Shown: in pieces, positions 7,074 to 59,640 of the stretch
Position numbering within the stretch: position 1 is the first letter of the stretch
Layout of the letters: each line of letters starts with the position of its first letter
Assembly (NCBI GenBank): GCA_964016885.1
Contig: OZ024748.1
Coordinates: forward strand, 14,508,001 to 14,572,000
Length of the DNA: 64,000 nt
Source: Eledone cirrhosa
Taxonomy: Eukaryota
Reading direction: 5' to 3'
Program-made: the position numbers and the translations under genes
Notes under the pieces: generated by a model
The model's input: only the letters and a program-made list of their open reading frames with translations
The model's database searches: none
Told to the model about the DNA's origin: nothing

Positions 7074-7306
7074 TAATGTATAAAATCAATACAATATAAT
7101 TACCTCATTACCAGAGGTTTCCCGAATGAGGCGAATACGAAATAAACGACTTCATTCGTTCGTCAGACGAGGCAATATTTATTACCTCGTCTGAGGCAAT
7201 ATTATTGCCTCGTCTGACGAACGAATGAAGTCGTTTATTTAGTATTCGCCTCATTCGGGAAACCTCTGGTAATGAGGTAATTATATTGTATTGATTTTAT
7301 ACATTA
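7074..7306. mobile_element. Fold-back element with head-to-head minimal hammerhead ribozymes (Penelope-like pLTR remnant)
   Basis: About 100-bp near-perfect inverted arms. Plus strand: CTGACGA 7214-7220, stem II cgaatga/tcattcg, GAAAC-C-TCT-G-GTA 7259-7271, stem I caatattattgcctcgt/atgaggtaattatattg. Mirror copy on the minus strand. Follows (TA)n. Confidence 0.8.
7197..7288 (+). ncRNA. Type I hammerhead ribozyme motif, predicted cleavage after GUA at 7271
   Basis: Core boxes CUGACGA and GAAA, GUA triplet, 17-bp stem I with one mismatch. The base of stem II is an A.G mismatch. Confidence 0.7.
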
Positions 7307-7969
7307 AATTTTGCTCTGATATTTACATAGAGCACTCTTCATTTCTATGACCTTTTCTGTTTCCAACTGAAATTTCAATACTTATATATATATATATAGA
7401 CATATATATATTGTACACGCACATCCATAGGCCCTGAACTCCTGAGTTGTTGGGGATGTTTTATTGTCATAAAGCATGACTTGAGCCTTTGAAATGTTTT
7501 GGACCTCATCCACTTCCAGGTCTCAACACAACCAATTTCTTCCAAAGAAAGAAAGAACAAGAGGGTGAGAAAGAAAGATGGAAGAAGAATTGACCCCACT
7601 ACTAGACTGGTACTTTGTTTTTCAACCTCAAAAGGATAATAGGCAAAGTTGAACTCAGAATTTGCACTTGGGTCACTGGCAGCTGGAACAAATACCACAA
7701 TGCATTCTATTCAATGTTTTAACGACTCTGTCAATTTGCCACCTGGAGATATTTTAGCAGAGCATAAAATCTAAAGTGAAATATCTGTTGATTGCTACTT
7801 CAGTAGTTTCTTGTAACTCTAAGTTGATTCCTCCCTCAATATTCTTGCTGTTAGTGCTATAAAATTTCCCATTAGATAATAGCTACATCTCTTCACACAC
7901 ATGCATATATACACGTATACATCTAGTGTATTGCAGTTACCATTTTTACTATTATTATTACCCCCTACA

Positions 7970-8184
7970 GGGGTGGTGAATTGGCAGTATAGAGGATGGT
8001 GAATTGGCAGTATCGGTAGAGGGTCGGACGCCATGCTTTGCAGCACAGTTACGTCCCTTTACGGACTCAGTTCAAATCCCGCCGAGGTTAACTTTGCCTT
8101 TCATCCTTACGGGGTCGATAAAATAAAGTACCAGTAATGCACTGGGTAATTGCTGGCCTTGTGTCAAAAGTAGAAACAATTATT
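7970..8184 (+). mobile_element. Short tRNA-headed SINE (GCCTTTCATCCTTACGGGGTCGATAAAATAAAGTACCAG family)
   Basis: Head ggtgaattggcagtatcggtagag, B box agttcaaatcc, conserved central block and ATT tail. Roughly 25 copies in the window. Confidence 0.85.
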
Positions 8185-8468
8185 ACCCTCTATAGGGGAA
8201 TTTTATTGTTGTAATTTTATTGTTAATTTGTTTTTACTCAGTTTTTATTGTAAACCCCCACTCTCCCTGTTTTTTTGTATTCTCCCTATATGTAGGCCCT
8301 AGTGGCCAATAAAGAAATTACTACTACTACTACTACTAATGCCAACTACTAAACAGTTTCATATAACACCACATTCCTTAATCACAGTATTTATTTATTT
8401 ATTTTTGGGGGTGTGTTGATAGAGTTTTATAATTGAAGGAGTTACTAGACATATTATGTAGTTAATAA

Positions 8469-8656
8469 GGGCGGTGAATTGGCAGTATCGGTAGAGGGTT
8501 GGATTATGCTTTCCAGCATAGTTACGTCCCTTTATGATCTGAGTTCAATTCCCGCCGACGTTAACTTTGCCTTTCATCCTTACGGGGTCGATAAAATAAA
8601 GTACCAGTAATGTACTGGGATAATTGCTGGCCTTGTGCCAAAAAGTAGAAACAATT
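8469..8656 (+). mobile_element. SINE, same family as 7970
   Basis: Near-identical to 7995-8184. Confidence 0.85.
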
Positions 8657-10232
8657 CTGTAGTTGATAAATGTATTTCCACATTCCATACCTAATTAGAC
8701 AATAAGTGATGGCACATGGCCTAATGTTTAGAGTGTTGGACTCACAATTATGAGAGGAAAAATTAAATTTACAACTTGAACCTACACAGCTTTAAATGGC
8801 CTTCTATGATGATGGATCTCATAGAAAGTTTCTCAGGTGATTTAATGATAGGGGAGGAACCAGTGTTGTTTTTAAAACTTATATCGATGTAAGTTTAGCT
8901 GGACTCATATGAAGATGTTTTAATGATAGGGCTGCCAGTCTTATGAAAAGCAACAGAAAATGTAGAACATAATGTGCTATATGGTCCAAAAATGAAACTC
9001 ACAGTCATCAGTCAAAAATCCTAACCATTAGGCTAAACTCCTTCGCCAAGATGATAAGGTCAGTGGTTTAATATCTTAACCAGGTAGTGTATTGTATTCT
9101 TAAGCAAGGCTCTTCACTTCACATTGCTTTTCATGATAAGAGTTAGGGCTCTATCATTAAAACACAAAACCTATGAGATGTAATATCATAGAAAAACTGT
9201 AACCACAACTTGAAACAAGACAAGACAACCAAGAAACTTTCTGTGATGCATCCTTTTAAAAGGCCAGTTAAACCTACATAGGTGTGAGCTGTAAATTTCA
9301 TTTTTTTTTTTTGTCTTTCATTTCAATCAGACAGTATGAATCATGTTTGGAACTTAACTTAAGAATGGTTCTTACATAAAATTAGGATGAAAGGATTTTA
9401 TATAAATATAGACAGTTTAAAATATACAGCTTTGTATCATAGAGCCAAGAGTGGTTTCAAGCAGGTTTTGGTGTCAAACATGTTAGTATTAAGAAAGGTT
9501 CTTACATAAAATTATTATGAAAGGGTTTTAAATAAATATAAACATTTAAAAATATACAGCCTTGCATCATAGAACCAAAAGTGGTTTCAAGCATGTTTTG
9601 GTAACAAAGGGATTCATATTGGAACATTACTGAAACTTAAGTCAAACTTTACAGAACACTTTTCCCACAATCATAACTGGGGAAAATAAATAAATATATG
9701 AAAATATAGGAGCCTTTAACAATACAAGACAATCAATATTTCAAATTTTTGTCTCATTGTTTTGCTTAATTTATTTGGTTCCTGTTTTATTTGAAAGTAA
9801 AGTAGTTATTTTAGTTATTTTAAAAGAAGCAGATAAAAAGTGATTGTACTGAAATTTAATTTATGTGATAATAGTAACCTTATTTTCTTGAAAATACTTC
9901 ATTTCATTATTATTATTATTATTTTGTTGTTGTTACTCTGTAACAGTAAATTAAGTGGTTCACATTAAAAGGTTAAAGAAAATAACAAAAATATTAAACA
10001 GGAATGTAACTTTTCAGAAATATATTTCTAAATATTTCAGTTTAGTGATTTTTTTTTTTAAATTTGAAATGGAAACACATTATTATAATTGGGGCTGCTT
10101 GTAAGAAGGTTATAGGTTCAAATCTAGCTGAAGGTAATTCATTATGTTTTTAGAACAATGCACTTAAGTCTACTTGGTTAACACCTAATTAAAAAGTTGT
10201 TGTCATAACTAATGGCTTTTATTATTATAGAA

Positions 10233-57142: not shown

Positions 57143-57490
57143 AGGGCAGTGGGTTGGCAATAACAATAGAACATCAGGCAACATACTTTGCGGCACTTAG
57201 TTATGACCCTTTACATTCTGCTTTCAAATCCTGCCGAGGTTAGCTTTGTCTTTCATCCTCGCGGGGTCGATGAAATAAAGTACAAGTTATATACTGGGGT
57301 CGATTTAATCAACTTCCCCCTCATCCCCAAATTTGTTGACCTTGTGCCTGAATCAGAAACTATTTATTTATTGCTCTTTACTTTCTGAGCTCAAATATTG
57401 CCAAGGTCAACTTTGAGTCAATAAAATAAAGTACCAGTAATGCACCGGGATAATTGCTGGCCTTGTGCCAAAAAGTAGAAACAATTATCG
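57143..57490 (+). mobile_element. Two tandem 7970-family SINEs
   Basis: Central block at about 57250 and 57420. Confidence 0.7.
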
Positions 57491-58774
57491 TTGTTATTAT
57501 TATGATGATTTAGACATTTACTGTGATCTTATGTTGCTTACACTTGATTCATATTCATTGAGTCATCGAAGAAGATATCGTTATTATTATTATTATTTTC
57601 ATTTTATTCTTTTGTAATTTTGATTTTTTAACATCAACCAGATCTTTCTTAGGCTTCTCTCTCCCTCTCTCATTTTATATATATATATATATATATATAT
57701 ATGTAGGAGGTGAGTTTTATTGTAGTACAATAAAGCAATGCAGATATCGGATAAGAAGCACTCTACAGTTTGTAGGACTGGAGTATGTTGATTTAAAACT
57801 GCACTATTCACAAGTGTTTTTTAACCTTCATATCATGTCTTCCTATTTTATCTGATGAAAACACAAATGTTATTGCATGATGATATTTGTTTTTGAAATA
57901 CGCATAATAAAATACATGGAACTCTTTTAACCATCTTTTGATCTTATATATATATATATATATACACATATATATATATATATATATATAATATGCACAT
58001 AACCTATTTGCTATGTGTCTGTAAATGACAAAACCTATACACACACACATACATATATGTATTGTATGTATGCATATGTATTATATGTATGTATGCATAT
58101 GTATGCCACATTTACAATGTGTCTGTAAATGACAAAAGAAATATATATATATATATATGTATATGTGTGTGTGTATGTATATATAACAATGAATATTATT
58201 GTTTACTTGTCTTCTTTCTAAAACATTTTCATGCTACAACACTGCTGAAAATTTCTTCATGAAAATTGAAATTAATTCAATTCAGTCATGTTTAGAGAAG
58301 GCAGAATACATCAGTTGATATTAAAATGCATTAAATGAATTTTACCTGCTGGTGCAAGTTTAGAAAGAAGGCAGTAGTTGAAACCAGCTCTGATTAGGTG
58401 TCTGTTATTGATGATACCCCCCACTGTGTCAATCTGACACAAATCTAAATGTTAATGAGTGCTAATGAGACTATTTTTCTTGTTTTTGAAATAACAAATG
58501 AAATAATTATTAAAATGATTACATTGCAATTTTTTCAACTAAAATAAAATTTCAAGATCAGCATAAACATCTTTAAAAAATCATTTCTTTTAGAATTGTC
58601 TTCATGATTACTTTATCACTTAACCTATTTTCTTACACAGTTATTTGAAAATTAGATTCCTCATTATTATTCTCCTGATCATGTGACCATCAATAATATT
58701 CGAAAGCTGTGAATAAATTTTACATGTTAAAATTATTAAAATGTTTCAAAGAAGGACATGAAATATTTTATACG

Positions 58775-58925
58775 GGTGACTTCTCTCAATTTCCTGCCTA
58801 TAGATGTTATATAAGGTGACATCTCCCAGTCTCCTGCTTATAGATATTATATAACTTCTTCCGACTAACTGCCTATAAGTATTATATAGTCTGACTTCTC
58901 CCACTTTATTGCCTATAAATATTTT
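58775..58925. repeat. About 35-40-bp tandem repeat (4 units)
   Basis: gacttctc....ctgcctatagat.ttatata is repeated. Confidence 0.65.
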
Positions 58926-59436
58926 GTAATGCTGTTACTTCAAATTTCTCCCCTATATTAAATTTCTGATTTAGGCATATCACCAATGAATACAAAAAAA
59001 ACTAGCACAGAAAAAAATGAAAGAATGCAACTGGCACCAGTATTACATCACCAGCAACAAATGAAGTGTGACAAGCAGATAATAATAATAAATAAACGAT
59101 GATGACGACAGTGATGATGATGATGATAAGGATTTCTTTTATAATAATAAAAAAAAAAGATGTAAACATTGTATTTCTTTCTTGGTGCTATACAAATAGA
59201 GAGTCTGGTTGTCAAACTTTTCAGTGTTCAGACAGGCTAGGATATTTTTTTATAATTTATATAAAAGACATAGACATTAGAAATAAAACAAAAAATAGAA
59301 TTACTACTTAAAGTATTTAAGATGACAATATTATAAAAATGTCACCTGAAGTGACGGATGATAAGAAAGAAAGCTGTATATATGTGTATATGTGTCTCTC
59401 TCCCTCTGTGTGTGCTTGTCCATATATATATATACA

Positions 59437-59640
59437 TAGGAACGAGTAGGACCACGACGGCTGAGCTCAAGCCGTTTCGACGGCTAATTCTGGACAGAAT
59501 TAGCCGTCCAGAATTAGCCATCGAAACGGCTTGAGCTCAGCCGTCGGGGTCCTACTCGTTCCTATTACCCACTCTACTACCCTAAGTATTGAGTACTTTG
59601 GTGCGTTATGGTCCACCTGGTTCCTTACCACATTTCCTTC
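59437..59640 (+). mobile_element. Fold-back element with hammerhead 3' half (GAAAC-GGCT..AGCC-GUC) plus unpaired tail
   Basis: Inverted arms 59437-59564, gaaac 59523-59527, gtc 59543-59545. Tail ttacccactctactac...gagtactttggtgcg..tggtccacctggttccttaccaca. In (TA)n. Confidence 0.7.

Follow-up and report, generated by a model that had tools for sequence, protein, structure and literature searches.

What are the short palindromes that lie scattered over a 64,000-nucleotide stretch of the Eledone cirrhosa genome (assembly GCA_964016885.1, contig OZ024748.1, positions 14,508,001 to 14,572,000 of the forward strand), and how did they come about? An earlier reading of this stretch, which we call the window and whose positions are counted from its first letter, had seen in them non-coding fold-backs with hammerhead ribozymes on both strands, possibly a non-autonomous ribozyme retroelement class. 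According to our analysis they are very probably short insertion products of several autonomous families of Penelope-like elements (PLEs) of the Hydra clade, rebuilt at each insertion. This type of element is already known, but a conserved hairpin in its one-sided tail is apparently undescribed. Taken as a whole, identity and mechanism together, the account given below is the best explanation we have and reasonably likely to be correct.

The fold-back elements of the window

The window has a GC content of 33% and is rich in microsatellites; it has the look of animal DNA, and its repeats seem to be of the kind known from octopus. All nine fold-backs of the sequence-only reading (7074, 26736, 27574, 30455, 30667, 31141, 40183, 52195 and 59437, here E1 to E9 in coordinate order) are present, with arms of 22-185 nucleotides (nt), and they do lack open reading frames (ORFs), the longest stop-free stretch being 35-74 amino acids. 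Four further members were absent from that list: three elements at 15228, 53885 and 57703, which together with E1-E9 make up the set of 12 elements considered here, and a solo hammerhead at 31356.

7074-7382: E1, arms 7074-7177 and 7203-7306, head-to-head, complete type I hammerhead on each arm; tail on the right, hairpin 7309-7341 (+)
15228-15493: unlisted palindrome, Hydra-type stem III on one arm; tail on the right, hairpin 15435-15468
26590-27018: E2, degenerate palindrome 26748-27018, cores at 26897 (+) and 26868 (-), both arms broken; tail on the left, interrupted by a dispersed-repeat fragment, hairpin 26630-26659 (-)
27503-27681: E3, arms 27574-27616 and 27639-27681, one core at 27637 (-); tail on the left, hairpin 27540-27571 (-)
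30453-30653: E4 (family A), degenerate arms cut off inside stem II, no CUGANGA; tail on the right, 80 nt, hairpin 30578-30613 (+)
30667-30917: E5, arms identical at 69 of 71 positions, cut off inside stem II; tail on the right, 102 nt, hairpin 30823-30877 (+)
31071-31336: E6, complete Hydra-style hammerhead on each arm (31268-31312, +; 31166-31210, -), 21-nt central filler resembling E6's own end; tail on the left, hairpin 31106-31130 (-), mutated in this copy
31356-31408: unlisted solo Hydra-style hammerhead (+) adjoining E6, with G8>A; top match of model R2 (E 3e-4)
40089-40547: E7, arms of 178 nt, complete hammerhead on each (40441-40504, +; 40223-40286, -); tail on the left, 91 nt, hairpin 40146-40178 (-)
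52195-52372: E8, long tail-less arm (-) with one mutated core (52264), 22-nt arm and tail (+); hairpin 52291-52348 (+)
53885-54033: unlisted family A copy, tail-less arm of about 55 nt joined to an arm of about 10 nt with tail; non-palindromic
57703-57944: unlisted asymmetric copy, complete hammerhead 57845-57910 (+); tail on the left, hairpin 57755-57784 (-)
59436-59642: E9 (family A), arms identical at 58 of 60 positions, cut off inside stem II, junction duplicated; tail on the right, 79 nt, hairpin 59567-59602 (+)

Every element possesses a non-palindromic extension of about 60-100 nt between the end of one arm and the microsatellite, on one side only. This one-sided tail, present in 12 of 12 window elements, had gone unremarked in the sequence-only reading. 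The (TA)n or (TAA)n flanks which that reading described are directly seen, since a TA or TAA run is no more than 12 nt away from 21 of the 24 outer ends, compared with 10.5% of all window positions. The families were also said to share no primary sequence, which is wrong: E4, E9 and 53885 belong to one family (family A), and the tails of all families share a motif. Within family A the outer ends and the tail are the same while the centres differ, and 53885 is not palindromic at all.

The same picture is obtained from sequencing reads of four runs, compared at 80% likeness with positions 30400-31400, a segment that takes in only E4, E5 and E6. In these reads the tail of family A is highly repetitive, with a summed depth above 1 million against 2-21 for single contigs listed, although read depth is not a copy number; on its 5' side it continues into an arm like that of E9, and it ends in (TA)n. 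Two alternative outer ends are seen in the E6 family, tailed (1878 reads, X7) and tail-less (1275 reads), each followed by (TA)n. The low depth at the centre of E6 is partly due to the divergence of this copy, and we therefore relied on the joints. Genomic junctions of this family skip 64, 65, 68, 79, 84, 93 or 150 nt, with differing fillers, and in a run from another organism (X5 loose end) GAAAC and the palindromic stem III are kept through a compensatory double change. Because the joints vary while the changes in stem III compensate, the core is conserved and the palindrome is rebuilt at each insertion.

Hammerheads on both strands had been proposed for all nine fold-backs. This holds for E1 (7074), E6 (31141) and E7 (40183), where CUGANGA, stem II, GAAA, stem III, UH and stem I are present on each arm, and does not hold for the other six. 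Together with a core at 57852 these are the complete ones, the remainder being partial or mutated. The plus arm of E2 carries G8>C and its minus arm has lost 7 nt through stem III; E3 and E8 have a single core each, located in the spacer and on the minus strand only, and the box of E8 reads CAGAAGA; E4, E5 and E9 have no CUGANGA box and their arms start inside stem II. The word CTGATCA in E5 and E2 is not the core box. Nor is a stem III of 1-3 base pairs (bp) universal, as that of E9 comprises 6 bp. E3, E6 and E8 share the style of Hydra-clade hammerheads, with a U on either side of stem II.

The motif frequency exceeds that of shuffled controls, as a strict hammerhead descriptor gave 3 matches in the window against 0.07 in 60 dinucleotide shuffles and a second descriptor 2 against 0.04. 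Rfam at its gathering score reports no hammerhead in the whole window and only a tRNA-like match, at 60459-60516, which lies inside a dispersed repeat and is probably the head of a short interspersed nuclear element. No hammerhead is among the matches listed at E-value thresholds either, and the microRNA matches simply reflect hairpins. In a minimum free energy prediction for the transcript of a whole palindrome, the two arms base-pair with one another at the expense of the ribozyme fold. In the mechanism proposed below, the hammerheads are passengers of the pseudo-long terminal repeat (pLTR). A pile of read ends at 31179 (X7) was rejected as evidence of cleavage (DNA library of the restriction-site-associated type, CAATTG word). 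At 29325-29365 (+) there is a weak solo hammerhead-like word with a 5-bp stem II and no proper stem III.

Some further observations concern the neighbourhood of the elements. Between 30453 and 31440, E4, E5, a short AT-rich repeat, E6 and the solo hammerhead arm stand back to back with only (TA)n between them, an insertion hotspot. The arms of E3 are nearly identical apart from five clustered transitions within nine bases beside the junction, which could mean two RNA templates. Two near-perfect palindromes (11371-11492 and 37139-37203) were left out, as they have neither tail nor core; the first is centred on a TA run without spacer. The broken frames at 53943-55342 have no Pfam match and resemble the C-terminal part of a non-LTR retrotransposon of the R2/R4 type.

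A hairpin shared by the tails

The motif common to the tails of unrelated families is GAG[CT][AG]CTC, which occurs 8 times in the window against 1.06 in shuffles; 8 of the 11 GAGNNCTC sites in the 64 kb lie inside tails. Nine of 11 tails have an RCTC 16-46 nt upstream of the motif, for which the background is 17% per 50 nt, and the two strands fold into a hairpin with a lower stem of 4 bp, a 2-nt bulge on the 3' side, a variable upper stem and a following RCU (RCUC...GAGY-RCU). The tail hairpin of 15228 has a compensatory C-G pair in its lower stem, and in E6 the majority base of the reads at 31129 restores the stem. Before the 5' strand and the covariation emerged, the motif had been considered a self-complementary GAGURCUC dimer signal, which was then dropped. 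A coding origin was rejected, as the variable bases are not at wobble positions, and an origin from a tRNA A-box fits the context of E6 only.

A loose pattern for the hairpin is unselective (16 matches in the window against 5.6), whereas a structured one gives 13 against 1.2 but was derived from the window sequences themselves. Therefore, counts at metagenome loci and the ranking by a covariance-type model were taken as the tests. A model built from 26 hairpins from outside the window places the tails of E1, E9, E3, E8, E4, 15228 and E7 as its top seven window matches, all in the expected orientation and with E-values from 5e-8 (E1) to 0.03. The eighth match (E 0.23) is a site at 4123-4148 (-) that resembles the tail motif and has no recognised arm. 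There is also a three-copy family (4364-4507, 26025-26268 and 26333-26555) of the same build, with inverted arm, variable junction and (TA)n ends, whose one-sided tail of 55 nt has no hairpin; it perhaps belongs to another PLE clade. A hammerhead-like word at 4332 precedes its first copy, and the two sister copies begin at most about 12 nt downstream of the would-be cleavage site.

For the count, metagenome contigs were scanned with the two core boxes and the 3' strand of the hairpin, leaving all stems and the 5' strand free, which yielded at least 120 loci (L001-L120). Among these listed loci 75 fold as hammerheads, and 66 of the 75 possess the hairpin with at least three upper pairs, as opposed to 11 of the 45 non-folding loci, most of them damaged members of the same families. 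Counted by cluster, the hairpin is present in 20 of 25 folding and 2 of 28 non-folding ones. Its upper stem covaries (13 double-change cells, reached in 0 of 500 shuffles), a count in which relatedness is not controlled, and G-U pairs are present. The lower stem contributes no covariation, as it hardly varies and the scan pattern fixed its 3' strand. An exact 23-mer of the family A tail had no match in metagenome or viral contigs. In a cluster of six loci (L002, L005, L045, L051, L061 and L072), core boxes and a good stem II occur together with the word GAGCACT, and neither an adjacent stem I nor the standard hairpin is present; this is possibly another PLE group of different geometry.

The hairpin can also be recognised by eye in published elements. 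It is present in the 3' extensions of the consensi Hydra-2_Ajap and Hydra-2_Amil and twice at the 5' end of Hydra-1_Ajap, and the 3' extension of Hydra-1_Crog contains a near match (supplement File S7 of PMC8557442). The consensus of Hydra-1_Amil is without both regions. Thus four of the six Hydra consensi in that file carry the hairpin, three exactly and one nearly.

The metagenome relatives also provide a link to coding elements. L049, L046 and L044 contain frames of 721, 724 and 710 amino acids with the motifs of Hydra-type proteins (RWK/RWR, DKT/DKS, YRDD and CxCx4-5C). The single ORF for a reverse transcriptase (RT) with C-terminal GIY-YIG endonuclease (RWK, DKT, CxCx5C) is thus found in these loci, which have hammerhead and hairpin in common with the window elements, and not in the window copies, as expected for stubs. 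The L049 frame gave nothing significant against Pfam and the PDB, and its assignment to the clade therefore rests on the motifs. The two largest metagenome families hold ORF-linked copies (L022 in one, L040 and L075 in the other) next to short one-tailed head-to-head palindromes, and these palindromes resemble those of the window in their templated fillers and in being flanked by AT-rich sequence or microsatellites. L049 has a second copy of the tail at the 5' start of the element; that the tail derives from the 5' start is seen there and in nine loci where the tail runs into the ORF, all of them metagenome relatives and none a window family.

These relatives reveal a fixed geometry. A second hairpin follows the first after 56-77 nt in 9 of 9 tail-into-ORF loci (8 families), by a pattern loosened after inspection, against 0 of 67 other listed loci with enough room. 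Tail ends are fixed: in family 1 they lie at +40 to +44 from the GAG of hairpin 1 in 22 of 24 copies, and the tail stops short of hairpin 2 by 4 nt in L049 and by about 3-5 nt in the relatives of L083. The tail-less inverted arms of the listed metagenome loci all end before hairpin 1 (18 of 18, mostly by 3-9 nt), and in eight window elements this arm ends 2-8 nt before it. The upper stem opens with U-A in hairpin 1 (25 of 28 representatives) and with C-G in hairpin 2, so the protein may distinguish the two sites.

At the other end of the arms, the 5' ends pile up. In family 1, 22 of 27 lie 2-12 nt upstream of the core (mode 11), five run long and none falls between, a count that omits the reference, four copies at contig ends and three duplicates and in which a few of the copies kept may represent alleles of a single locus. 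The mode at 11 falls on the A of TCATT; in the long copies a TATATATA run begins 31 nt upstream of it, and family 2 has the same spacing of 31 nt with 5' ends at 12-13. The TATATATA run and TCATT resemble the consensus motifs of TATA and initiator elements.

Origin of the palindromes and alternative explanations

We propose the following course of events. The endonuclease would nick both strands of a (TA)n target, as it does in vitro in another PLE and as the flanks suggest for the present elements. Two cDNAs, one per nick, would then be primed at two fixed positions of the RNA and yield a tail-less and a tailed arm; the fixed paired 3' ends are observed, whereas priming at them is our interpretation. 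Each start would lie a few nt 5' of a bulged hairpin, two of which stand in tandem between the pLTR and the start codon. As each of the two would set a start, the length of the tail should correspond roughly to the spacing of the hairpins. The positions of the hairpins are seen directly; that each of them docks one RT subunit is about evenly balanced between right and wrong. The template would be a transcript from the pLTR promoter, on which the RT either copies to the 5' end of the RNA, just upstream of the hammerhead, and runs off, or halts in stem II, so that arms of 10-180 nt without ORF result. The pile-up of 5' ends in the relatives is an observation, and run-off is its probable origin. 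Finally, end joining of the two cDNAs with small templated fillers would produce the head-to-head palindrome with its one-sided tail and the variable junctions that are found.

In its full form, the proposal states that the pair of hairpins docks an RT-endonuclease dimer and thereby fixes the starts about 5 nt upstream, that the tail equals the hairpin spacing, and that the palindromes are paired run-off (strong-stop-like) cDNAs of the 5' pLTR transcript. This remains tentative, with slightly less than an even chance of being right. The nicking of both strands, the internal starts and the predicted dimer are carried over, by analogy, from the literature on another clade.

Several points weigh against the proposal or against the assignment behind it. 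The ORF link holds for the metagenome relatives and the window's own families are unlinked; tblastn with the L049 frame found no match in the window, and Pfam on 29 of the 113 window frames gave nothing relevant and no PLE ORF fragment. Two families make up most of the metagenome set, which also favours short insertions whose cores are intact. Hairpin 2 is seen in the relatives and in no window family, its strict form matches six of the nine tail-into-ORF loci, L010 was added by hand, and the distance of the tail end from it was measured in two families only. The hairpin model missed 5 of the 12 window tails, most window arms obtain weak scores from the Hydra hammerhead model (E 0.05-1.2), and in the published 5' end of Hydra-1_Obim the hairpins are not clearly visible (PMC8557442). 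Moreover, the Poseidon element PAc uses the same RT start sites on both strands in vitro (PMC11167929), which taken alone does not predict a strict asymmetry with one tail.

Among the alternatives, the one that survives best keeps the Hydra-clade identity and assumes doubly truncated insertions from full-length templates. The 5' pile-up would then be caused by re-cutting by the endonuclease at ATT or by microhomology, and the hairpins would serve otherwise, in DNA recognition, translation or RNA stability. Indeed, the PAc endonuclease favours 5'-ATT-3' and cuts its own pLTR, the D. virilis tail is needed for endonuclease recognition (both PMC11167929), the pile-up site starts with ATT in both metagenome families, and three of the nine window elements end inside stem II, well short of any start site. 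However, the edge of the pile-up is sharp, with no ends in family 1 between 13 nt and the long class, and it lies 31 nt after the TATA run in two families. In addition, the covariation of the motif is that of an RNA stem, G-U pairs included, and both fixed ends have a similar offset from a hairpin, so that we consider this explanation unlikely, though worth keeping in mind.

A dedicated non-autonomous class, transcribed and reinserted as a whole palindrome with ribozymes on both strands, was the suggestion of the sequence-only reading. Its link to Penelope pLTRs and the head-to-head orientation are borne out and several of the hammerheads are real, but the class itself is already largely refuted and quite improbable. 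The junctions of family A and of the E6 family differ among copies, 53885, 57703 and E8 are asymmetric and non-palindromic, six of the nine fold-backs lack a complete core on one or both arms, and the same forms occur in metagenome families of this architecture whose other members are linked to full-length ORFs. Junctions that vary, together with such ORF links, are what the sequence-only reading itself had named as pointing to ordinary truncated PLE insertions. Head-to-tail tandem units, each with a complete hammerhead, as in retrozymes, are likewise not found, the inspected elements being single and inverted or asymmetric. This has to be set against young, near-perfect palindromes (E1, E5, E7 and E9), a high density, three elements with both cores and a centre of E5 that is well covered in contigs, so that some junctions may recur; published non-autonomous PLE derivatives do exist.

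Just as improbable is an inverted arm produced by self-priming, i.e. fold-back on an antisense template, which was proposed for rotifer Penelopes from junction palindromes (Arkhipova et al. 2013, PMC3846280). The 2-nt spacer of E2 and the short palindrome at the junction of E5 would fit, but the occurrence of exactly one tailed arm, the ends that track sense-strand hairpins and the templated fillers are left unexplained. MITE-like DNA transposons (miniature inverted-repeat transposable elements) or chance palindromes with incidental hammerhead-like words could account for inverted termini, TA flanks, missing ORFs and the missing Rfam match, but are refuted, and very improbable indeed, in view of descriptor counts above shuffles, one-sided tails and variable centres instead of a fixed family structure with symmetric terminal inverted repeats, compensatory changes in stem III and the same architecture in RT-encoding families.

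Significance and comparison with known systems

The origin of the inverted ends and the tail of PLEs is stated to be open (PMC8557442; PMC11167929), and the RNA element recognised by a PLE RT is not mapped in the literature covered here. A hairpin as cis-element makes the origin of the tail directly testable: with 30-40 nt, a presence in many families and a fixed offset from both starts, it offers a direct target for mutagenesis in in vitro assays of a type already established. Should it act as a portable start signal, the choice of template by these telomerase-related enzymes would be explained. It can also be used as a short tag by which ORF-less palindromes that might easily pass for MITEs or unknown repeats are assigned to a PLE clade. 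Neither the hairpin pair nor the run-off reading was found in the literature searched, which was without most subscription papers, Repbase and the supplement of PMC11167929 that contains an RNA-folding figure.

The build of the window elements, on the other hand, is that of PLE-type inverted, 5'-truncated head-to-head copies with variable junction. Such copies, inserted into (TA)n and tailed on one side, have been published (PMC8557442; PMC3846280), and Cervera and de la Pena (2014, PMC4209133) ascribed dual hammerheads on opposite strands, 100-700 bp apart, to truncated PLEs. With the inverted-pLTR insertions of PMC3846280 and PMC4209133 our elements share the head-to-head inverted pLTR, the tail at one end and the opposite-strand hammerheads; they differ in that both halves are stubs here, that a shared cis-element is identified and that a run-off from two primers is proposed instead of self-priming.

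The Hydra-clade PLEs (Craig et al. 2021, PMC8557442), which include Hydra-1_Obim from Octopus bimaculoides, resemble the window elements in their (TA)n target and in a type I hammerhead near the 3' end, often with U flanking stem II and with a palindromic stem III. In contrast, the window copies are without ORF, and their tails measure 60-102 nt as compared to the 30-40 bp given for PLEs in general. The word "hairpin" does not occur in the main text of that paper, nor are the hairpin pair and the 5' pile-up mentioned in the parts of it covered here. The non-LTR retrozymes (bioRxiv 10.64898/2026.07.22.740005) are also non-coding, PLE-derived and equipped with type I hammerheads. However, they consist of head-to-tail tandem units with a full hammerhead each, whereas the present elements are single and head-to-head, with variable centres and often without a full hammerhead.

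The closest biochemical counterpart of the proposed mechanism is Poseidon PAc (Frangieh et al. 2024, PMC11167929): in vitro it cuts and extends both strands, and its tail is delimited by two internal start sites. As in our proposal, a dimer is predicted for it, its binding site was inferred to lie 3' of the starts and hammerhead cleavage is not needed. The two systems differ in the location of the starts: those of PAc are situated inside the ORF in an AC-rich stem loop, with the binding motif unmapped, whereas the starts proposed here would lie in the 5' untranslated region beside conserved hairpins.

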